A DNA stretch of 7,523 bases from the IMG/VR virus record IMGVR_UViG_2579779076_000001, positions 1-7,523 of that record; one strand, 5' to 3'. How positions within the stretch are numbered: position 1 is the stretch's first letter; each line of letters starts with the position of its first letter. Below are positions 1 to 7,523 of the stretch, piece by piece. Below the pieces are notes generated by a model. The model did no database searches, had not been told where the DNA came from, and worked only from the letters and a program-made list of their open reading frames with translations. This DNA is from a virus (lineage: Duplodnaviria; Heunggongvirae; Uroviricota; Caudoviricetes). The position numbers were made by a program, and so were the translations under genes.

Positions 1-119
1 TCGGTTCCGGCTCCACCAGCACCCTGCCGCAATGAAAAACAGGCCGTGATTCGCGTCCAGGCTTAAGGACCACCAGGCCAAGTTCCGGCACCAGAACAGG
101 TCGAAGTAATACCCGCACG

Positions 120-392
120 TTACCTCCAGATACGTTGCTGGAATGTGCGGGACGGACGCGGTGGATGTTCGGAATAAGGGAGCCTGACAGAGATTATCCA
201 GTGACGATAATCGAGGCTGATGGCTTTCTTAACCTCGTATCCGCGCCTGCGGTAACACTGAATCAGCCATTCGGCCTGTTCTTCAGTGCATGGGGGATGC
301 TGGTACCAGTCGGTTTTAAATACGTGCGAATGCCGCCCCCGCTTAATGGCCGGGACGGCTTCAGAATTGTGGGATTTTATACGTTGCGCCAT
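120..392 (-). CDS. hypothetical phage protein, basic, about 90 aa
   Basis: ORF-track ORF 120..410 begins with GTG; in-frame ATG at 392..390 has GGAGAA about 6 nt upstream; TAA stop at 120-122. No family recognised. An opposite-strand ORF (135..407) in the same triplet phase lacks any RBS and was not preferred. Confidence 0.5.
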   Translation of the reverse strand: MAQRIKSHNSEAVPAIKRGRHSHVFKTDWYQHPPCTEEQAEWLIQCYRRRGYEVKKAISLDYRHWIISVRLPYSEHPPRPSRTFQQRIWR

Positions 393-442
393 CGGGTTCT
401 CCGGTGACACAGCAGGTGCCAGTTGTTCAGGCCGGCGTGCGA

Positions 443-472
443 ATTGTAAACCAGAATGCCAGGAAAAAACAA
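443..472 (-). promoter_or_regulatory. candidate sigma70 promoter for the 90-aa gene (-35 TTGTTT, about 18-nt spacer, -10 TACAAT on minus strand)
   Basis: Minus-strand TACAAT at 448..443 with weak -35 about 18 nt upstream, immediately after the hok terminator T-run; leader of about 45 nt to the ATG at 392. Confidence 0.3.
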
Positions 473-490
473 AACCCGCAGAAGCGGGTT
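463..490 (-). terminator. rho-independent terminator at the 3' end of the hok mRNA
   Basis: Minus-strand hairpin AACCCGC-UUCU-GCGGGUU (plus 473-490) followed directly by UUUGUUUUUU (plus 463-472). Confidence 0.65.
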
Positions 491-558
491 AAGTGCGGGT
501 GCATTGAGGATGCCTGACACATCAGAGGTGGCGAGGGATTTCTCCCTCGCCGGGTCTC

Positions 559-714
559 TTACTTCTCAGATTCGTAAGCTGTGAAGACAGCGACCTCCGT
601 CTGGCCGGTTCGGATTCGTACCTCGCAGAGGTCTTTCCTCGTTACCAGTACCGTTACAACGACGGTAATACAGATGACGATCAGGGCGATTAGCATCGCC
701 TTTTGCTGCTTCAT
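559..714 (-). CDS. hok: Hok/Gef-family type I toxin (51 aa, single-TM membrane peptide)
   Basis: Translation MKQQKAMLIALIVICITVVVTVLVTRKDLCEVRIRTGQTEVAVFTAYESEK matches the Hok/Gef/RelF family almost residue for residue (recalled). ATG at 714..712 with AAGGAG about 9 nt upstream; TAA stop at 559-561. Confidence 0.9.
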   Translation of the reverse strand: MKQQKAMLIALIVICITVVVTVLVTRKDLCEVRIRTGQTEVAVFTAYESEK

Positions 715-771
715 AGCCTGCTGCTCCTTGCCTTTCGGCGCATAAGAGGCTAATCTAAGTGTGCAAGTCAT
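559..771 (-). CDS. mok: mok-like in-frame upstream reading frame (70 codons) overlapping hok
   Basis: ATG at 771..769 in frame with hok adds 19 N-terminal codons; TGAGG lies about 11 nt upstream. In-frame Mok extensions are known for chromosomal hok loci (MokC/HokC, recalled). Confidence 0.55.
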   Translation of the reverse strand: MTCTLRLASYAPKGKEQQAMKQQKAMLIALIVICITVVVTVLVTRKDLCEVRIRTGQTEVAVFTAYESEK

Positions 772-836
772 AGATATGGCCTCAGATTAATGTTAAGCGT
801 CCTGCAAGACGCATAATGTTAACTGGGGCTTTTCTC
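763..836 (+). ncRNA. sok: candidate Sok-like antisense RNA overlapping the mok start and hok leader
   Basis: Plus-strand -35 TTGCCT (728-733), 17-nt spacer, -10 TAATCT (751-756), start about 763; possible 3' stem 779-785/823-829 followed by TTTTCTCT (830-837). Position and size fit the hok/sok paradigm; ends are approximate. Confidence 0.35.
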
Positions 837-883
837 TGTCTGCCTTACGTCGGCATGCCCGAGGCAGACAGCCTCAAGCACCC

Positions 884-918
884 GCAGCAATTCTACTTAA
901 CTCTTCTTTCCCCGCAAA
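884..918 (-). promoter_or_regulatory. candidate hok mRNA promoter (-35 TTGCGG, -10 TAGAAT on minus strand), start about 883
   Basis: Minus-strand TAGAAT at 895..890 with TTGCGG about 16 nt upstream. The predicted 5' end GGGUGCUUGAGGCUGUCUGCC resembles the hok tac element, and an about 418-nt transcript to the terminator matches hok mRNA size. Confidence 0.4.
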
Positions 919-924
919 CCGTTT

Positions 925-1008
925 TTATCCCCAGCGGCAAATCGAATACACCACCAGCGCCACCGCCATTGCAATTCCTACCGTTATGAACGCTTCAGGC
1001 CAGGTCAT
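925..1008 (-). CDS. 27-aa hydrophobic micro-protein (MTWPEAFITVGIAMAVALVVYSICRWG), candidate small membrane peptide
   Basis: Below the ORF-track size cut-off. ATG at 1008..1006 overlaps the upstream TGA (ATGA); GAGGAG about 10 nt upstream; TAA stop at 925-927. One predicted TM helix. Confidence 0.3.
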   Translation of the reverse strand: MTWPEAFITVGIAMAVALVVYSICRWG

Positions 1009-1520
1009 CGTAAAATATTCTCCTCGTTTATCAGTCCGTTTCGCTTCAGGTAGTCCATCGCCTTATCCGGTAATTTGCAGTCCGGCTTCGCTTTTTTCAG
1101 TTGGCTGACCAGCCGTTTAACCCACATTGCTAATTCGCTAACCTGATTGCCGGATGCTGGTGGATTGTCGGCTTTACCCAGAATGGCAGCACAGCAGGCC
1201 TCTCTGAGCACCCAGTCAACAGCATCCTTCCATGCTCCTGTTTCGACTGGCGGATTCTCACGCTTTACCTGTTCATAAAAGCGCACAGCTTTAACCAGTC
1301 CTTCTGATGTCACCGGGACTGGCGGGCCGATGAATAAGGCCTGAATTTCATAGTTCGGCCTGTCGTTACAATCCTCTTTTGTCGGTACATATTTCCAGTC
1401 ACCAGCCCACGGCTTCCCCTGAAAGTCTGTAACGTCTTTTTTCACGTAGCGATATCGCCATGCAACTGGTTTTGCCTGCCCTGCCGTTTCATGCCCTTCC
1501 TGATAATTAATCTCGCTCAT
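1005..1520 (-). CDS. hypothetical phage protein, 171 aa
   Basis: ATG at 1520..1518 overlaps the stop of the upstream 58-aa ORF (ATGA); TGA stop at 1005-1007. Trp-rich N-terminal half; no family recognised. Confidence 0.7.
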   Translation of the reverse strand: MSEINYQEGHETAGQAKPVAWRYRYVKKDVTDFQGKPWAGDWKYVPTKEDCNDRPNYEIQALFIGPPVPVTSEGLVKAVRFYEQVKRENPPVETGAWKDAVDWVLREACCAAILGKADNPPASGNQVSELAMWVKRLVSQLKKAKPDCKLPDKAMDYLKRNGLINEENILR

Positions 1521-1693
1521 TCATCGCCCCACTCATCACAATATGCTTCGACCGGAGTTTTTCCTACTTCATAATCATCACGCCATGCTTCAGCATCAGC
1601 AGCACTGCCACCACGTAACTCTGCATAGTCCATTAACAGTTCATGCCATTCTTCAAAACTGACGTTGTATTTAGTTGAACCAAAATCAGCCAT
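1517..1693 (-). CDS. small acidic protein, 58 aa (MADFGSTKYNVSFEEWHELLMDYAELRGGSAADAEAWRDDYEVGKTPVEAYCDEWGDE)
   Basis: Not in the ORF track (under 60 aa). ATG at 1693..1691 with GAGGAAG about 8 nt upstream; start overlaps the upstream stop (ATGGCTGA) and its TGA overlaps the next ATG (ATGA). Confidence 0.5.
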   Translation of the reverse strand: MADFGSTKYNVSFEEWHELLMDYAELRGGSAADAEAWRDDYEVGKTPVEAYCDEWGDE

Positions 1694-1868
1694 TTTGTTC
1701 TTCCTCTTCGTCTTTTATTTCGTGATATGAGTAATTGCAGTAGTTAAAGAAAATTTCTTTTGCTTCGTTATGAATTTCATCAGGCGTCGCATCATCATTC
1801 ACTTCGAATTCATCCTCGAAATCTCCACCGGCGATTCCCGTTTCAATAATTATTTTGAACTTTCGCAT
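1686..1868 (-). CDS. small acidic protein, 60 aa, in an AT-rich island
   Basis: True ATG at 1868..1866; strongly acidic C-terminus (DEEEEQNG); visibly AT-rich compared with flanks; preceded by a 147-nt AT-rich intergenic region containing GC hairpins. Weak SD. Confidence 0.5.
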   Translation of the reverse strand: MRKFKIIIETGIAGGDFEDEFEVNDDATPDEIHNEAKEIFFNYCNYSYHEIKDEEEEQNG

Positions 1869-2015
1869 TTCACTACCGCCCTGCCGGGCGGTCTCCTGAT
1901 GTTCTGAGGGTGCAGGAATCCCTCCGGTTAAGGATTAAATTTTATTTACAGTGCTGATTTTAATTATTCAGTTCTGGATTATGCTTTCTCTTTCACCTGC
2001 CGTAGTTCCTGGTAA

Positions 2016-2321
2016 TTAATTTCGCTCACTGGTTGCCTCCTGGAAAATAACTGCATGCCCCAGTTTCTCCGCCAGTGCCAGCTCTGCCTTAGCGCCTGCC
2101 GACCGCTGCCAGCCTTCCAGCATATAAACCGCATCCACACAACGAATCATTGCCATGCAAATATCCATGTAATGTGGCTGAGTCAGCCCGTCCGGAAGTA
2201 CTGCGGGATTTAATACGGTATGCCCTTCCTGTTTCAGTGCTTCTTCCGCCTTGTGAAACGCCTCACGGTTGAAATTTTCATATCCCGTCATCGGACCGGC
2301 GATATAAATTCTCACCCTCAC
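2016..2321 (-). CDS. DUF4406 / nucleoside 2-deoxyribosyltransferase-like protein, 101 aa
   Basis: N-terminal R-I-Y-I-A-G-P-M-T-G motif, then F-N-x-x-A-F and V-L-N-P, typical of the NDT-like Rossmann fold (recalled). GTG start at 2321..2319 overlaps the upstream TGA (GTGA) with AGGAGG about 8 nt upstream; TAA stop at 2016-2018. Confidence 0.75.
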   Translation of the reverse strand: MRVRIYIAGPMTGYENFNREAFHKAEEALKQEGHTVLNPAVLPDGLTQPHYMDICMAMIRCVDAVYMLEGWQRSAGAKAELALAEKLGHAVIFQEATSERN

Positions 2322-2599
2322 GCCTGAACCCTCCTGTCGAAATAAACGTAGTTATTCACTGCGCCCAACTTCATCCCAAACTTTTCGGCAATTTCCCGTC
2401 GGGGTACGCCACGCTGATGCAGTTGCCGCGCCAGCTCAATATCACGCTGTGAACATTTGGCTGACTGGTGATAATCACCCCGTAACATCATGCAGATACC
2501 CAGTTCCCGCGCTTTCGTCCTGACGGCAGCCCCACTACGGCCAATCAGACTGCCGATGCTTTCGACTGTCATCGTTCCCGCACACTGCCGGAGTATCAT
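2318..2599 (-). CDS. small DNA-binding protein with two predicted helix-turn-helix motifs
   Basis: ORF-track start (GTG at 2722) lies inside the upstream gene. First ATG after the upstream stop is at 2599..2597; alternatives are GTG 2635 (GTGA overlap with upstream stop) and ATG 2572. HTH-like segments VESIGSLIGRSGAAVRTKAREL and RREIAEKFGMKLGAVNNYV. Start uncertain. Confidence 0.55.
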   Translation of the reverse strand: MILRQCAGTMTVESIGSLIGRSGAAVRTKARELGICMMLRGDYHQSAKCSQRDIELARQLHQRGVPRREIAEKFGMKLGAVNNYVYFDRRVQA

Positions 2600-2631
2600 A
2601 ATTTCCGCCCAGCGCCACTTCTTCCAGCCAC

Positions 2632-3348
2632 TCACCGCAGCAGCTCTCTGGTGGCGGTAATATCCCGGAGAATATCCCTGTGTTTGTTCAGTTCCCGCAG
2701 CGCGGCGCAGACACGCTCCCACTTCTGAACCTGACCTTTTGCCCGGCGCAGCTCGCGGTTAGCCACATGCAGCGATGGTAGAATCAGGTCATCTGCTTTC
2801 GTTTCGGTGACCGATGGCTGTAACTTCACAATGTCTTCCACGATTTCTGTTTTCATTTCTTCCTGTGTCGTCGTTTCCCGGACTGGTAACGCAACACCTG
2901 CTGGCTGAGGAAAGGCTTTACCATCGGTTTCCGCTACGGATGCAGCTTCCGGCTCTGCCGGTAAATCAGCGCCCGGTATGCAGTAACGAAATTTACCGCC
3001 CTGATTTACGCGAATCAGACGCCCTTTGCTGATTGCCATGGCCAGCGATGAATTCGCCCGGCGGGAGGTAATCCCGAACATAAGTGCCAGCTCATCCGCC
3101 GTTTGTGGGCCATGTTGTTCAATCGCCTCAGTCAGCATTTGCGCTGTCACTTTCGGTACCGGTGACACTGGTTCACTTTCACCTGCCTGAGTCAGCCACC
3201 ACATCGACCCCTTGTTATCCGCTTCACCACGGCGCTTCAGTTTCCACAGTTCGTTGACCGCATCTTCACGGCTGATTCCAAGGCGGGCCGCCACTACCTG
3301 TGAAGAGGCTCTTTTCAGTGCTTTCAGTGCGTCAAATACGGTTTCCAT
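2632..3348 (-). CDS. phage protein with tandem winged-helix domains and a C-terminal coiled-coil-like tail, 238 aa
   Basis: ORF-track start is TTG (3366); ATG at 3348..3346 has GGAGGAAA 7-8 nt upstream. Two internally similar wHTH-like segments (residues about 5-55 and 70-130) with shared GxKFRY-like ends; helical charged C-terminus. TGA stop at 2632-2634. Confidence 0.7.
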
Positions 3349-3381
3349 TAAAATTTCCTCCGACAAAATCGTTTCCCAGAT

Positions 3382-3843
3382 TCAAATAAAACCAGCAGCC
3401 TTCCGGCGTTCGTATTCCTGTTTCAGCCGTTCAATTGGCGTTGGCCCTTTCGGGTGTTTCGCCCCTTCCAGTTGTCGTCGCACTGGCGGAACACTCATCC
3501 CGTTACCAACATGCTTTGCCCATTTCGTCAGTTGCCGTTCCGCAAGTCGTTTTAACTCACCCTGCGTCATCTGGCGCTCAATCCCTCTGGTACGCATTTC
3601 GAGGCAGATGTGGTACAGCACAGGCTGTGGCCACGGGTATTTATCACTCCCGTCGTATCGCCAGGATTCATTGCGCCAGCGCCGGTACTCTTCCATCACG
3701 GCATCCACCGTAAGACCAAATGGATTTGCCCCACTCTCCGAAATCAGCGCAACAAACTCAGCCAGGTCCGGGGGCCACGTTTCACCCGCCCGGCAGCGGT
3801 CCATGCACTGACGGCAGACCAGACGGATTTGCTGTTCAGTCAT
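3382..3843 (-). CDS. lambda P-like replication protein (DnaB helicase loader)
   Basis: C-terminal two-thirds aligns by eye with lambda P (PPDLAEFVALISE versus PSPGQFVAWCREE; YPWPQPVLYH versus YPWKSNAHYW, recalled). Start chosen at ATG 3843..3841, overlapping the O-like stop (ATGACTGA). ORF is open up to ATG 4044, which has a good SD, so a longer 220-aa form is possible. Confidence 0.7.
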   Translation of the reverse strand: MTEQQIRLVCRQCMDRCRAGETWPPDLAEFVALISESGANPFGLTVDAVMEEYRRWRNESWRYDGSDKYPWPQPVLYHICLEMRTRGIERQMTQGELKRLAERQLTKWAKHVGNGMSVPPVRRQLEGAKHPKGPTPIERLKQEYERRKAAGFI

Positions 3844-4867
3844 CGCACCAATCTGGGCAATCCAGAGCTTCGAAGGTGCGGCCCCGTTCTTCTGAGTCCA
3901 GCGGTTCGAATACACCTCCCCCATAAGCTCCCACAGCTTCCAGGCCATTTCCGTTGCTGATAAATCCGTTGTCACGTTCCCACTGTTCGCGTGCTGCCCG
4001 GATTTCCTGAACTGCCCGTGATGCCGTGCCACCTGATGCTGCATGGCTTACCCCCTTGCTGACTGGTTTTACCTGTGCCCTGACGTGCTGCACGTGACGG
4101 GCAAATTTCTGCTCCCACTGAACCTGCGTGAAAACCTTCCCCTCCGCCATCCAGTAATCCCGGAATGCGGCAAGCTCAGCAGGTGTAAATTCCGGCTCAG
4201 GCAGAGCCATACCCCACACTGCTGCCCGTTGTCGAAAATCCGGCGACGGCTGCCAGACAGTAGTCATCGAAAATTTCCCGATGGGTTCGCTCAGGCCGTC
4301 CAGGTATTCAGGTTCGGCTGTCTGCAACGGCGCACCATTCGACTCACTGGTCGGAATACTCTCGCGCGCGTTATGTGTGGGGTTTAATTCTGTATCTGTA
4401 TCTTTATCTGTCGTGACTTGTCGTGACAGATGCGTGACACGTCGTGACTCATCGTGACAATCAGCATTATGTTTCCGCAGCTTTTCCCGCTCCCGCTGCG
4501 CTCTCTTACGCTCTGCCGGGGATTTTGCCGTTTGCGAAACGTTACCATTGTCCTCTTTCAGCACCTGACGTTTTTCCCATCCGGAAATAAGGTCACCATC
4601 CAGAACCCGCCCCTGCATTGCATGCAAAATTGAATCAATTACGTCTTCCGTCACATCAAGCGCACTTGCTAAATCTTCCGTCGTGACATCAATGTGACCA
4701 CGTAGTGACACGCCGTGACATGTCGTGACATTTCGTGACGCGCTCACCAGAAGGTGGATATACACTGCCATCACTGTTGCGATTGGCTGTCCTGATACCC
4801 TGGCAATCGTTCGCCACTTGGGGTCATTTGGCATGTCATGCCACAATCTGAGCCAGGCATTAGCCAT
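3836..4867 (-). CDS. O-like replication initiator / replisome organizer (N-terminal DNA-binding domain, DnaT-like C-terminal region)
   Basis: ORF-track start is GTG (4873); ATG at 4867..4865 has GAGGTG 3-4 nt upstream. Sits directly upstream of and coupled to the P-like gene and carries internal iteron arrays. Family assignment (DUF1376/DnaT-like) is from recall. Confidence 0.75.
   Translation of the reverse strand: MANAWLRLWHDMPNDPKWRTIARVSGQPIATVMAVYIHLLVSASRNVTTCHGVSLRGHIDVTTEDLASALDVTEDVIDSILHAMQGRVLDGDLISGWEKRQVLKEDNGNVSQTAKSPAERKRAQREREKLRKHNADCHDESRRVTHLSRQVTTDKDTDTELNPTHNARESIPTSESNGAPLQTAEPEYLDGLSEPIGKFSMTTVWQPSPDFRQRAAVWGMALPEPEFTPAELAAFRDYWMAEGKVFTQVQWEQKFARHVQHVRAQVKPVSKGVSHAASGGTASRAVQEIRAAREQWERDNGFISNGNGLEAVGAYGGGVFEPLDSEERGRTFEALDCPDWCDD
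4386..4458. repeat. iteron array 1: AT-rich direct repeats followed by five CGTGAC-core repeats at about 10.5-bp spacing (candidate origin)
   Basis: GTGAC at 4413, 4423, 4434, 4444, 4454 (spacings 10, 11, 10, 10), preceded by AT-rich ctgtatctgtatctttatctg (4390-4410). Lies in the linker-coding part of the O-like gene, as lambda ori does in O. Confidence 0.6.
4650..4739. repeat. iteron array 2: six GTGAC-core repeats at helical spacing plus one inverted GTCAC
   Basis: GTGAC at 4683, 4694, 4705, 4715, 4725, 4735 (spacings 11, 11, 10, 10, 10); inverted GTCAC at 4650-4654. Inside the N-terminal coding part of the O-like gene. Confidence 0.55.
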
Positions 4868-4935
4868 ACTCACCTCTTCTGATACCGAACTTTACCCACG
4901 AACTTCCGGAAGAAATCCGGTATAAATATTGTTGG

Positions 4936-5361
4936 TCAATGCACAACAACTGCATTACCAGGCTGACCACCACTGTTAGTCAGGGTGCCCCAGGCGATCG
5001 CTACAGCGACAAAATCATCCACATCTTTCACCAGCCGATCCCGTCGTTCGACGATCTCCCGGTAATATTCAGAACTGTGACTGCGCATACGGGCCACCAG
5101 CAAAGGCGGCATCGCCTTTTCGATCGCCGGTAACAGAGCCTGCATTTTTTCAACAGCATCAGGGGTGTCTTTATCCAGCCAACGGAAAATTTTCTGGGTA
5201 TTACGGGCCAGGGCTTCCGGATGGCTGTCGTCGTACAGTTCAGGGAACGTCATCCCCAGTTCGAAATAAGTCCGGGCTATTTCAGCTGCGGGAACTTTCT
5301 CACCGTCAGGATATGCCCAGGCATTCATCGCCATGCGGATGTGCTCATGCTTGATTTTCAT
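4936..5361 (-). CDS. ydaT: YdaT-family protein at the cII position of the immunity region
   Basis: N-terminus MKIKHEHI and length of about 141 aa match my recollection of YdaT proteins. ATG at 5361..5359 overlaps the Cro-like stop (ATGA) with GAGGAA about 8 nt upstream; TGA stop at 4936-4938. Confidence 0.65.
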   Translation of the reverse strand: MKIKHEHIRMAMNAWAYPDGEKVPAAEIARTYFELGMTFPELYDDSHPEALARNTQKIFRWLDKDTPDAVEKMQALLPAIEKAMPPLLVARMRSHSSEYYREIVERRDRLVKDVDDFVAVAIAWGTLTNSGGQPGNAVVVH

Positions 5362-5573
5362 GAATCATTCCTCATTTCGTGCGAGGTGTTATTCTTCTTT
5401 TTGTACAGCTCTGGGTTGTATTTCAATTCACCACCAGTAATTTCATCCAACTCAATTGCTCGAAGTTTTGGAATAACAGATTTCCACCGAACAACAGCCA
5501 CGTGTGAAATTCCCAGAGCCTCTGCTACTAGCCGCTTTTTTTTGAAATAGCGTAGGACATCATCTTTAAACAT
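5358..5573 (-). CDS. Cro-like / YdaS-like small HTH regulator, 71 aa
   Basis: ORF-track start is TTG (5609), inside the operator region. ATG at 5573..5571 has GGGGGAA 4-5 nt upstream. HTH segment LVAEALGISHVAVVRW; divergent from the CI-like gene across palindromic operators. Confidence 0.7.
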   Translation of the reverse strand: MFKDDVLRYFKKKRLVAEALGISHVAVVRWKSVIPKLRAIELDEITGGELKYNPELYKKKNNTSHEMRNDS

Positions 5574-5599
5574 AAATTCCCCCTGTAAAACCGAACCTA

Positions 5600-5664
5600 A
5601 AGGTAACAATAGTTACATGATAATGTCAACCATAGTGACATCCATTGGTAGTAACATTGGTTAC
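5600..5664. promoter_or_regulatory. OR-like operator region with leftward PR-like promoter
   Basis: Palindromes GTAACAATAGTTAC (5603-5616), TGTCAACCATAGTGACA (5624-5640) and GTAACATTGGTTAC (5651-5664) at about 23-25-bp centre spacing. Minus-strand -35 TTGACA (5629..5624), 18-nt spacer, -10 TACCTT (5605..5600), overlapped by the first operator. Confidence 0.55.
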
Positions 5665-6339
5665 ATGAACACTACTATTAGCGAACGCATCCGAAAGCGT
5701 CGAAGAGACATAGGTCTAACCCAACAGCAGGTTGCAAAGGCTATCGGCGTCACCCGTGTATCCGTAACAAAGTGGGAAAATGGTTCAACAAAACCGGACG
5801 GTGAGAATTTACATCTGCTGTCAAAACTGTTTTCCAAATCACCTGAATGGATTCTTTATGGGAAAGATATTCACGATCAAGTCGATGATTTGCGATTGAA
5901 TCAACTCCCCTACCTTAGTGACAACATCACCCGGTTGCCCGTTTTAACGTGGGAACAGGCTGGTTACTGGGATATGAGCTACCCAGTAACCGAAATCCCT
6001 GGTATTAAGAATTGGGTTGATGTCATGACAAAAACATCTGAAAACTCTTTTTTATTGCGCGTTGAGGGAGATTCAATGACAAACTCTAACGGTTTGCCAA
6101 CGATCCCCGACGGCTCCACGGTGTTGATCACTCCATGCTCTGGCAACATTGGGGAGATGGCGGGAAAGATTGTTCTAATCCAACTAGAAGGAATACCAAC
6201 TGTAACACTGAAAAAAGTCGCAATTGATGGCCCAAACATCTACCTACTGTCATTAAATCCGCTTTACAAGCCTATAGAACTCAATGGTCGCTACACCATT
6301 AAAGGTAAAGTCTCACAAATCCATCAATACTTAGATTGA
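5665..6339 (+). CDS. CI-like repressor: XRE-type HTH N-terminal domain plus S24 (LexA-like) autopeptidase C-terminal domain
   Basis: HTH segment LTQQQVAKAIGVTRVSVTKWENG; C-terminal domain with GDSM (Ser) and KK (Lys) dyad context. ORF-track ATG at 5617 would place two operators inside the coding region, so ATG 5665, abutting the third operator, is preferred (leaderless-like, as lambda cI from PRM). Alternative start 5617. TGA stop at 6337-6339. Confidence 0.8.
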   Translation: MNTTISERIRKRRRDIGLTQQQVAKAIGVTRVSVTKWENGSTKPDGENLHLLSKLFSKSPEWILYGKDIHDQVDDLRLNQLPYLSDNITRLPVLTWEQAGYWDMSYPVTEIPGIKNWVDVMTKTSENSFLLRVEGDSMTNSNGLPTIPDGSTVLITPCSGNIGEMAGKIVLIQLEGIPTVTLKKVAIDGPNIYLLSLNPLYKPIELNGRYTIKGKVSQIHQYLD

Positions 6340-6345
6340 CCAAAA

Positions 6346-6368
6346 GCCCGCATATATTGCGGGTTTTT
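6346..6368 (+). terminator. rho-independent terminator after the repressor gene
   Basis: Stem 6347-6352 / 6358-6363 (CCCGCA / TGCGGG) with 5-nt loop, followed by TTTTT (6364-6368), 7 nt after the stop codon. Confidence 0.7.
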
Positions 6369-6381
6369 CACACGCCTTTAT

Positions 6382-6429
6382 GTAACTTATAGAACACGCA
6401 TTGACTCAACGAGTAACTTCTGTTACCTT
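6382..6429 (+). promoter_or_regulatory. OL/PL-like operator-promoter for rightward early transcription
   Basis: Perfect operator GTAACTTCTGTTAC (6413-6426) and degenerate GTAACTTATAGAAC (6382-6395). -35 TTGACT (6401-6406), 17-nt spacer, -10 TACCTT (6424-6429): the same -35 / operator / -10 layout and identical -10 hexamer as the PR-like promoter. Confidence 0.5.
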
Positions 6430-6605
6430 CATTGCGTACCCACCCCGTCCCACAGAACGCCGGGCAATACTTCGAGTTACCCGGCAGTGGTCAGGGGTTA
6501 AGTAGCCAGCCCGAGGCGTATGAACATGACGGCGGGAACACTTTGTATAACAGCGCAGCAGGTTTTTAGTTCCGCTACCCGGCGTTAAGGGGAAATGAGG
6601 TCAAC

Positions 6606-6758
6606 ATGGATACGCTCAATCTTGGCAACAACGAATCTCTGGTATGCGGCGTGTTTCCCAACCAGGACGGCACGTTTACCGCGATGACGTATACCAGAAG
6701 CAAAACGTTTAAAACTGAAGCTGGCGCGCGTCGCTGGTTAACCAGAAACACTGACTGA
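6606..6758 (+). CDS. small protein, 50 aa (MDTLNLGNNESLVCGVFPNQDGTFTAMTYTRSKTFKTEAGARRWLTRNTD), possibly YdaF-like
   Basis: Not in the ORF track. ATG at 6606 with GAGGT about 5 nt upstream; TGA stop at 6756-6758 overlaps the next ATG (TGATG). Resemblance to Rac YdaF-type small proteins is a weak recollection. Confidence 0.5.
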   Translation: MDTLNLGNNESLVCGVFPNQDGTFTAMTYTRSKTFKTEAGARRWLTRNTD

Positions 6759-6769
6759 TGAGGTTGACG

Positions 6770-7144
6770 ATGGAATTTAAAGATTTACCACTACCATTCC
6801 AGGAAATGGCTGCGAATATAGTTCGTTCTCAACTGGCCACTCTTGACCTGAGTACCGTAGAAAAAGAAACCATCGATAATATATCCGGTAACGTACGCCG
6901 AGCCTTTATCGGGCTGTACGAAGAGAAGCAGCTCTCTGATAACCAGGATTTACATGAAAAATACTTTCTGGAATTAATGGACATCATTAATAAAGGATTT
7001 GGCTTGTTAATGAAAAAGAAAGGGATTCGAATAGCTCCCCTTGAAAATCATTTTACAGCAAGCAGTATTAACTCCTGTGATTTAAAGCATCACACATCCG
7101 ATGGGAAAGTTGAATCAAACAACAAAATATCAATTAATCATTAA
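6770..7144 (+). CDS. hypothetical AT-rich cargo protein, 124 aa, first sizeable gene of the PL-like operon
   Basis: ORF-track start 6758 (ATG) has no SD; ATG 6770 has GAGGT 6-7 nt upstream. Visibly AT-rich, Lys/Asn/Ser-rich C-terminal half; no TM segment; no family recognised. TAA stop at 7142-7144. Confidence 0.65.
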   Translation: MEFKDLPLPFQEMAANIVRSQLATLDLSTVEKETIDNISGNVRRAFIGLYEEKQLSDNQDLHEKYFLELMDIINKGFGLLMKKKGIRIAPLENHFTASSINSCDLKHHTSDGKVESNNKISINH

Positions 7145-7455
7145 TTTATTCACGGGTGAGGTAGAGCGCGTGCGCCGGACACGGATAAGAATCCGGCACT
7201 GACAGTTTACTGAAAGAACATATCCCTGAAAAGTCAGGGCATAACACGAAAGCGCACGGCGAGAATATAAGGCTTGTCGTTAAATTTAATTCGATCGTGC
7301 GCTTCCGGTTGTGGCAATCCGCGAAATGGCGCGGCGGTAAGTATGGCTGGGGCTTCCTCCATTGCTCCAGAAAATGCACCGGGTTGTCAGGTTGACCATG
7401 CGCCTGAGTGACAACACCGCCACAACAACCTCTGTTATCACTTTTCTGGTGATTC

Positions 7456-7481
7456 GGCGGAAATGGATATCCGCCATTTTT
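7456..7481 (+). terminator. candidate rho-independent terminator (plus strand)
   Basis: Stem GGCGGA (7456-7461) / TCCGCC (7470-7475) with 8-nt loop, followed by ATTTTT (7476-7481). No convincing upstream CDS in 7145-7455, so the transcript it ends is unclear. Confidence 0.45.
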
Positions 7482-7523
7482 AAAGTGTATTTTGTGATGC
7501 GGTGAATGCGGCTAAGCGCACGC

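Follow-up and report, generated by a model that had tools for sequence, protein, structure and literature searches.

A conserved structured leader RNA at the head of an early-left operon in N-less Rac/Qin-like lambdoid prophages

Lambdoid phages that lack N raise the question of how their early operons are read through terminators. We came to it through a single locus, in a 7,523-nucleotide (nt) stretch of viral DNA (IMG/VR record IMGVR_UViG_2579779076_000001, positions 1 to 7,523; hereafter the window) that is the immunity and replication region of an Escherichia coli lambdoid prophage. Behind a PL-like promoter, this prophage has a leader of roughly 170 nt (~6436-6605), then genes for a 50-amino-acid (aa) and a 124-aa protein. 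What do the leader and the two proteins do, in a phage without N? An initial annotation of the same DNA had described the structured leader with its short upstream open reading frames (ORFs), and had read the two genes as cargo in a rex-like slot, possibly exclusion or defence genes expressed in the lysogen. We confirmed what it had observed, whereas its interpretation was partly supported. We report here that the leader carries a conserved RNA element (Table 1), which is a concrete candidate for the readthrough function, and we weigh the roles that such an element may have.

The leader folds into a conserved multi-helix RNA

In the element, the closing helix P0 encloses a long hairpin made of P1, P2 and P3, and a block of ~35 nt lies between P1 and P0. 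The 6-bp stem at 6459-6464/6480-6485 that had been picked out earlier is real. It covaries and corresponds to P3, one helix of the 111-nt whole. Position 6461/6483 of P3 is unpaired in 26 of 45 distinct copies, so that an internal mismatch is part of the motif. P0 is weak in the window copy and has 5-7 bp in other subfamilies.

The pairing became apparent from divergent copies. Among close E. coli copies, the commonest variant breaks P3 by tandem A-G/G-A mismatches. The copy in phage pPE4, which is 76% identical, keeps the hairpin by exchanging G-C for A-T. Divergent copies were collected by searching viral contigs for the most conserved 18-mer in its pPE4 form, which yielded >120 loci. At these loci the arms differ yet stay complementary (GCCGGG/CCCGGC, CGCTGAG/CTCAGCG, CACTGAG/CTCAGTG and GCAAAG/CTTTGC). 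They flank an invariant 15-nt loop, CAAUACnnnGAGUUA, and are followed by the block AAGUAGCCAGCCYGAGGC..GAACAUGAMGGC. When the divergent copies were folded separately, their minimum-free-energy structures converged on one architecture. Conservation starts sharply at ~6438, the predicted transcript start, below operators that are unrelated to one another.

We measured covariation in two alignments. When 16 copies were aligned by sequence only, 79% of cells were paired compared with 64.5% in shuffled controls, two-sided changes were found at 19 of 25 pairs, and slid controls gave 25-47%. In a model-aligned set of 45 distinct copies, 86.9% of cells were paired compared with 67.9% after shuffling, two-sided changes were found at 22 of 25 pairs (every variable pair), and slid controls gave 24-45%. 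The model-aligned set was fitted to the model and leans toward the structure, a bias that the sequence-only alignment does not have. For both alignments, none of 500 shuffles reached the observed percentage of paired cells, either count of two-sided changes or the covariation score. A further count, of pair types, was weaker, being reached by 8 of 500 shuffles for the 16 copies and by 138 of 500 for the 45 copies. The model-aligned set contains 209 compensatory cells where 68 are expected, with up to four pair types per column. P0 has two-sided changes at all five of its pairs, with 94% of cells paired; P4 is invariant and is therefore uninformative for covariation. RNAalifold, applied to a MAFFT alignment of all subfamilies, recovered only the invariant P4 and left the covarying arms out of register, a problem that was overcome with a hand-set structure and a covariance model. 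Judged by covariation, these data show that the leader folds into a conserved multi-helix RNA.

Three observations on the structure count against the explanation given further below. First, its folding energy is no better than that of shuffled sequences (z = +0.34 for the leader and -0.66 for the element); folding energy alone would have discarded a real structure. Second, the counts of G-U versus A-C favor the sense strand only weakly, and the strand is assigned mainly by placement. Third, the distal part of P0 is unpaired in two natural recombinants (L204:6921-7032 and L128:1597-1708), which combine the 5' half of the window type with the 3' half of the pPE4 type.

No family in Rfam 15 matched positions 6434-6605 of the window (E <= 1) or the element in five divergent loci. 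A literature search by element sequence, by related gene names and for put-like prophage RNAs found no description of the element. A conserved small protein encoded in the leader was considered as well and was ruled out, as ORF length and frame vary among copies. The leader RNA is an undescribed element, in an operon that is already known, as is its first protein, YdfA.

Table 1. Features of the repressor-proximal part of the window, with coordinates in the 7,523-nt stretch
Feature	Position	Strand	Details and basis
CI/LexA-type repressor gene	5617-6339	+	Pfam HTH_3 1.6e-15, Peptidase_S24 1.5e-18; RefSeq name LexA family protein
Terminator after repressor gene	6346-6368	+	GCCCGCATATATTGCGGGTTTTT, hairpin and T-run, direct reading; terminator-like on both strands, the scan flagging the minus-strand version (6363-6347)
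PL-like sigma-70 promoter	6401-6429	+	TTGACT 6401-6406, 17-nt spacer, TACCTT 6424-6429; direct reading
Operator palindrome GTAACTTCTGTTAC	6413-6426		overlaps promoter spacer and -10
Conserved structured leader RNA, 111 nt, helices P0-P4	6434-6544	+	covariance model R1, 113 bits, E ~1e-34; 5' end of PL-type transcript
P0, closing helix	6437-6441 / 6534-6538	+	core CCC/GGG; model alignment
P1	6442-6446 / 6494-6498	+	ACCCC/GGGGU; all 5 pairs compensatory across copies
P2	6450-6453 / 6487-6490	+	CCAC/GUGG; fold and covariation analyses
P3	6459-6464 / 6480-6485	+	GCCGGG/CCCGGC; all 7 P3 columns compensatory
Apical loop CAAUACUUCGAGUUA, 15 nt	6465-6479	+	nearly invariant, only three middle bases vary; invariant alignment columns
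Block UAAGUAGCC-AGCCCGA-GGC-GUAUGAAC-AUG-ACGGC	6499-6533	+	nearly invariant; holds P4 and GAGG-N9-AUG; invariant columns
P4, small hairpin	6505-6507 / 6515-6517	+	in block
Upstream mini-ORF from conserved AUG	6526-6588	+	20 codons in the window; stop 6586-6588; further AUG at 6520
ydfA 5' untranslated and ribosome-binding region	6555-6605	+	near-100% column conservation in both leader types
ydfA/ydaF-family gene, 50 aa, DUF1391	6606-6758	+	Pfam DUF1391 4.1e-29; phrog_751 4.9e-35
124-aa AT-rich gene, phrog_6937	6770-7144	+	phrog_6937 2e-77; conserved N-terminal module of ~55-63 aa (MEFKDLP...NVR.AF.GLY) and variable C-terminus
DicF small RNA variant, short (39-nt)	7443-7482	+	seed UUUCUGGUGA and terminator hairpin; aligned to annotated DicF of phage Tritos; terminator scan 7456-7475 and T-run; fold

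The AUG of the GAGG-N9-AUG in the block opens the mini-ORF of the leader, the upstream ORF reported before, which has start codons at 6520 and 6526. Of 105 distinct copies, 104 have this AUG, which stands, with the Shine-Dalgarno (SD)-like GAGG, at a constant position. Such constancy raises the possibility that the leader is coupled to translation: GAGG-N9-AUG would load a ribosome on the upstream ORF, and its translation would open P0 and P4 and shield the leader from Rho, or couple to translation of ydfA, and so set expression of the operon. The conserved first codons (AUG-ACG/AAG-GCN) fit this explanation, as does the position of the signal within the fold, where P4 half-sequesters the SD and the 3' strand of P0 falls in codons 3-5. 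The ORF runs in frame into ydfA in some copies, and the 5' strands are C/A-rich like Rho sites (CG 392 vs GC 258, AU 242 vs UA 38). However, neither the length of the peptide (4 to >31 codons) nor its sequence is conserved, and one copy has AUU in place of AUG. Moreover, the invariant stretch upstream of the AUG far exceeds what a ribosome-binding site needs, and the invariant apical loop would go unexplained. We consider a translation-coupled leader unlikely.

Three further observations concern the leader sequence. Many database entries for YdfA are 77-79 aa long (P0173, P0174, P0176 and others), because the element AUG is in frame with ydfA there; in the window, the stop at 6586-6588 separates the two. 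The ~50 nt that directly precede ydfA (GCAGCAGGUUUUU...GUUCCGCUACCCGGCGUUAAGGGGAAAUGAGG) hardly vary, and the region 6555-6605 is common even to Qin-type leaders without the RNA element, K-12-type Qin matching this part only. Finally, AACGCCGGG (6456-6464) is perfectly complementary to CCCGGCGTT (6578-6586). The two could form a long-range pairing that competes with P3; covariation gives it no support.

Position and spread of the element

The element keeps a fixed place relative to its promoter. In 70 distinct loci, the distance between a -35 TTGAC and the conserved leader is constant, though the intervening operators differ, and most of 137 distinct copies have a best sigma-70 match that ends 68-80 nt upstream of the block. 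Because the best promoter match lies at a constant distance upstream, the element is predicted to start within a few bases of the transcript start.

A structure with only a few bases between it and the 5' end could also be a stability or processing module, which either blocks 5'-end-dependent decay or presents a site for RNase III or RNase E. Its duplex is long, imperfect and coaxially stacked, and an RNase III site is present in the N leader of lambda. In the dicBF transcript, the ydfA portion has been found to depend on RNase III and RNase E (PMC10448788). These RNase data come from K-12 Qin, however, and the Qin-type locus that we examined has no element. Stabilizing hairpins also do not need ~50 invariant unpaired nt. 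We therefore regard a 5'-terminal stability or processing function as quite unlikely.

The leader (~155 nt) is present in 3,735 of 5,426 complete E. coli genomes (~69%), and the first gene after it differs: the window has ydfA, Rac has ydaG, and phage Evi has a 118-aa gene. Of the 101 distinct copies whose flanks were available, the majority stand in front of ydfA and a few in front of other genes, while boxA comes next in nine. In the other 92, the window type among them, no boxA was found in the 186 nt after the block. Model R1 finds a single copy in the window and in a 19-kb prophage stretch, with no copy in K-12-type Qin or in the HK022 PL/PR region (E < 0.5).

Some carriers do have N. Contig L140 (1150-4146) contains two tandem immunity modules in the same orientation, each consisting of a repressor, a TTGACC-17-GATACT promoter, the element, boxA-boxB and an N-like protein, and the arginine-rich motifs differ between the modules. 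On the nutR side of this N-type phage there is no copy. Named phages with related N proteins (Providencia, Morganella) have no element. Three contigs (L132, L147 and L185) have two element copies each. The element is specific to the leftward operon, and it is present with or without N.

The element thus occurs with many different downstream genes, and its unpaired segments stay the same in phages whose immunity regions differ. Both properties would be expected of an RNA that acts in trans as an early small regulatory RNA (sRNA), a sponge or a protein decoy, with the invariant loop and block as its interaction surfaces. Indeed, the operon already yields one sRNA, DicF, by processing (PMC10448788). 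An action in trans nevertheless appears highly improbable to us: no terminator or defined 3' end follows the element, no target complementarity was identified, and the constant place at the transcript start suits a cis role better.

The operon behind the leader and its first two proteins

Positions 6340-7523 are 99.9% identical to prophages of several E. coli chromosomes. In the best match, the annotated order after the repressor is DUF1391, a hypothetical gene, dicB, DUF1482 (ydfD type), an exonuclease, DUF4224, an integrase and the host gene yccA. Phage Tritos, K-12-type Qin and K-12 Rac have a layout in common with the operon of the window. Given this shared layout, the region is almost certainly, on gene order and identity, the promoter-proximal part of an early-left operon of the known dicBF/Rac type, in a Rac/Qin-like lambdoid prophage that lacks N. 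The operator-bearing promoter adjoins the repressor gene and is followed, on one strand, by ydfA, a variable gene, DicF, dicB, ydfD, the exonuclease, xis and int, with dicB and the genes after it lying just past the window end.

The PL-like promoter, which had been proposed earlier, is tied to the repressor by a shared operator. GTAACnnnnGTTAC is an exact palindrome at 6413-6426, and its only other exact copies in the window (5603-5616 and 5651-5664) lie between the repressor and cro genes. A promoter consensus scan did not call this promoter, because its weak -10 matches the consensus at only 3 of 6 positions.

This arrangement bears on when the two proteins are made. Since a terminator ends the repressor gene and both genes sit behind the operator-bearing promoter, ydfA and the 124-aa gene should be repressed in the lysogen. 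The slot is therefore not rex-like, as the genes are not co-transcribed with the repressor. Homologous promoters are controlled in this manner: DicA represses dicBp 22-fold (PMC10448788), and ydaG and ydaF are up 40-70-fold when RacR is antagonised (PMC11014345). For this reason, we prefer to read YdfA and the 124-aa protein as accessory proteins that are made early, once repression is lifted, and not as defence genes expressed in the lysogen.

The cargo proposal deserves a fuller hearing. According to it, both small genes would be rex/sieB-like exclusion or abortive-infection genes expressed in the lysogen, and the leader would merely tune their expression. The site next to the repressor is that of lambda rexAB, and the 124-aa gene, with its 37% GC and its hypervariable C-terminus, resembles many conflict genes. 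The operon also includes DicB, which is reported to protect against some phages (PMC6832061), and dicBp has some activity in stationary phase (PMC10448788). Nonetheless, the terminator and the operator-overlapped promoter separate the genes from the repressor, and homologous operons are tightly repressed (PMC10448788, PMC11014345). Neither protein convincingly matched a defence model in PADLOC-DB 2.0, where the only match was AbiEi at 0.04 over 27 residues of the 50-aa protein and the 124-aa protein had none. Pfam and NCBIfam assigned no function, no transmembrane or toxin-like feature was recognised, and structure searches were uninformative. Taken together, these results make lysogen-expressed cargo very unlikely. 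The defence reading is without support, and we take both proteins to be ordinary, uncharacterised early genes.

Direct reading found no arginine-rich motif in either protein, which upholds the earlier view that no N-type antiterminator is encoded here. The 50-aa protein belongs to DUF1391 (PF07151), which it matches over residues 2-48 of 50 with 100.4 bits compared with a gathering cut-off of 27.3. It is 87.5% identical to YdfA of Qin and 82% identical to YdaF of Rac, in a narrow, highly conserved family found in Escherichia, Shigella and Salmonella. The functions of ydfA, ydfB, ydfC and ydaFG are not known according to the dicBF and Rac papers (PMC10448788, PMC11014345), and our literature search on DUF1391/YdfA found no paper giving a function for YdfA. 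An AlphaFold2 model (predicted local distance difference test score, pLDDT, 85) has four strands and a C-terminal helix. The fold weakly resembles AP2-type DNA-binding modules; profile comparison gives no confirmation, and a sequence search of the PDB found no significant relative (best E 0.42). The "ydfA" of plasmid pUA1135 is apparently an unrelated gene that has only the name in common.

The 124-aa gene is AT-rich, as had been noted: its GC content is 37%, and 31% in the 3' half, compared with 50% for the window. The stop of ydfA (TGA 6756-6758) does overlap an ATG at 6758, as previously described; the real start, however, is the ATG at 6770, because all family members begin with MEFKDLP and a GAGG (6762-6765) precedes it. 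The family has 227 homologues, almost all from Escherichia, and 61 representatives among 1.84 billion proteins. Homologues of 40-208 aa have the N-terminal module in common and carry unrelated C-termini; the N-terminus alone (~55-63 residues) matches four other PHROGs. Two relatives connect the module with ydfC. P0166 (149 aa) has the MEFKDLP module (window 6770-6958) fused behind a YdfC-like segment, and in phage Evi a 135-aa member of the family comes after ydfC. The MEFKDLP module and ydfC seem to be linked, and the C-terminal halves appear to be swapped by recombination.

Searches with this protein gave little else. We looked for homology to a recombination or antitermination protein by sequence, profile and structure searches and found none. 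Pfam, NCBIfam and PADLOC contained nothing that matched, PDB sequence matches were not significant (best E 0.25), and no C-terminal domain was recognisable in the longer relatives. The structural model is of low to moderate confidence (pLDDT 59), with three helices and a disordered tail, and Foldseek on this pLDDT-59 model returned generic helical bundles only. Overall, the two window proteins match the DUF1391 and phrog_6937 families clearly (4.1e-29 and 2e-77), and neither family has an assigned function.

Further along the operon, the DicF variant of the window keeps the seed, the flanks and the terminator hairpin (GGCGG/CCGCC and U-run), whereas ~19 nt of the canonical body are gone. The Rfam DicF model RF00039 has no match in the window at E <= 1. 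Among the fetched loci, DicF has at least 5 body variants with a common seed, and the short form occurs in ~11. Between sieB and kilR, Rac of E. coli K-12 has a DicF-like Rfam match (L098:3650-3705) that falls short of the threshold (39 vs 48 bits), and a weak STnc100-like match adjoins it.

Divergent from the repressor gene, the minus strand carries a P22-Cro-type gene, a YdaT-family gene and a DnaT-like O gene with TCGTGAC iterons. It also has a gene of the lambda P type, several DUF genes and a hok/sok module. Within the DnaT-like O-type replication gene, two clusters (4411-4460 and 4681-4740) of ~5-6 close-set (T/G)CGTGAC repeats each look like origin iterons. The hok/sok-type toxin-antisense module (559-883, minus strand) consists of a Hok/Gef ORF, annotated in the identical prophage, and a full-length Rfam sok match (113 bits, E 6e-26). 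Just downstream of it, a weak isrK-like match on the minus strand (469-550; 29 bits against a gathering score of 50, E 0.0026) ends in a terminator-like hairpin; it could be a chance match or a divergent prophage sRNA.

A candidate role in elongation and comparison with known systems

What might the element do at the start of such an operon? Our leading proposal, itself less likely than not, is that it promotes elongation in cis, by antitermination or by an anti-Rho action, as a functional analogue but not a relative of putL of HK022. The repressor gene ends in its terminator, and the operator-overlapped promoter starts the early-left transcript, of which the first ~111 nt fold into the element. 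A conserved host partner is suggested because phages that differ in their immunity regions share the invariant unpaired segments; acting in cis on the nascent PL transcript through such a partner (RNA polymerase, the ribosome or Rho), the element would allow the distal genes to be transcribed and expressed despite the long untranslated leader and the DicF terminator in front of them. To the explanation as a whole, comprising the operon, the early proteins and a cis-acting RNA, we give about an even chance.

Three findings favor a role in elongation. The element has the position of HK022 putL (PMC9378689), most carriers are without boxA and N (92 of 101 distinct copies), and the intrinsic DicF terminator lies upstream of dicB, the exonuclease, xis and int. 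In 2025, the use of put-like RNAs by N-less lambdoids was only speculation by specialists (PMC12315714).

Other findings weigh against this role. Each phage has one copy of the element and none in the rightward operon, and nutR of N-type phages has no copy, whereas putL and putR are both required in HK022. Some 9% of the distinct copies are found together with boxA-boxB and an N-like gene, so that an antitermination role would be redundant there. The natural recombinants in which the distal part of P0 is disrupted count against it as well. K-12-type Qin lacks the element, and a study in K-12 still detects some ydfABC-dicFB-ydfD transcript (PMC10448788). In addition, nothing ties YdfA or the 124-aa protein to the RNA element.

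It is possible, though doubtful, that the element represents a new class of leader RNA by which phages reprogram the transcription or translation machinery of the host at the start of the early-left operon. It might, for example, be a processive antiterminator or an anti-Rho device that is independent of N and unrelated to put. Such a device would account for distal early gene expression in the very common N-less Rac/Qin-type prophages, K-12 Rac included. The copy in the racR-ydaG intergenic region of K-12 provides a genetic system that is already at hand. Even if the element is not an antiterminator, ~50 invariant unpaired nt at the 5' end, in phages with and without N, imply a conserved interaction that has not been described.

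The closest known operons are Qin dicBF and Rac ydaGF-kilR-recET of E. coli K-12, which resemble that of the window in gene order and in the logic of a repressed promoter and encode YdfA proteins 82-88% identical to the window protein. Rac has the RNA element between racR and ydaG (114.5 bits), as in the leader of the window. In contrast, K-12-type Qin has another, AT-rich 5' leader without the element. The window repressor is of the cleavable CI/LexA type, whereas Qin has DicA and Rac has RacR. In the window, a 124-aa phrog_6937 gene takes the place of ydfB and ydfC, and DicF is the 39-nt variant.

Among antitermination signals, the lambda nutL site is a cis RNA signal between PL and the first early-left gene, as the element is proposed to be, and N-type relatives have the element directly in front of boxA-boxB. 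Unlike lambda, the window has no boxA, boxB-type hairpin or arginine-rich N protein, and the element is absent from nutR. A nut site with N was ruled out for the window, as there is no boxA (CGCTCTTA/GCTCTTTAAC) downstream of the block and no arginine-rich N-terminus.

The put sites of HK022 offer the nearest parallel in placement. There too, a lambdoid phage without N-dependent antitermination has a PL transcript that opens with a structured multi-helix RNA, and invariant unpaired nt suggest a conserved host partner in both cases. The element starts within a few bases of the predicted transcript start, which agrees with the location of putL (PMC9378689). Homology to put was ruled out: the HK022 PL/PR region is without the conserved motifs, model R1 does not match it, and the architecture differs, the element having 111 nt and a closing helix where put has ~70 nt and two stems. 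HK022 has putR in its rightward operon, whereas the element has no second copy there in the window, in the 19-kb stretch or on the nutR side of L140. Furthermore, unlike HK022 put, the element coexists with nutL and N in some phages. These comparisons place it outside both put and nut, as a putative cis-acting leader RNA of lambdoid early operons.

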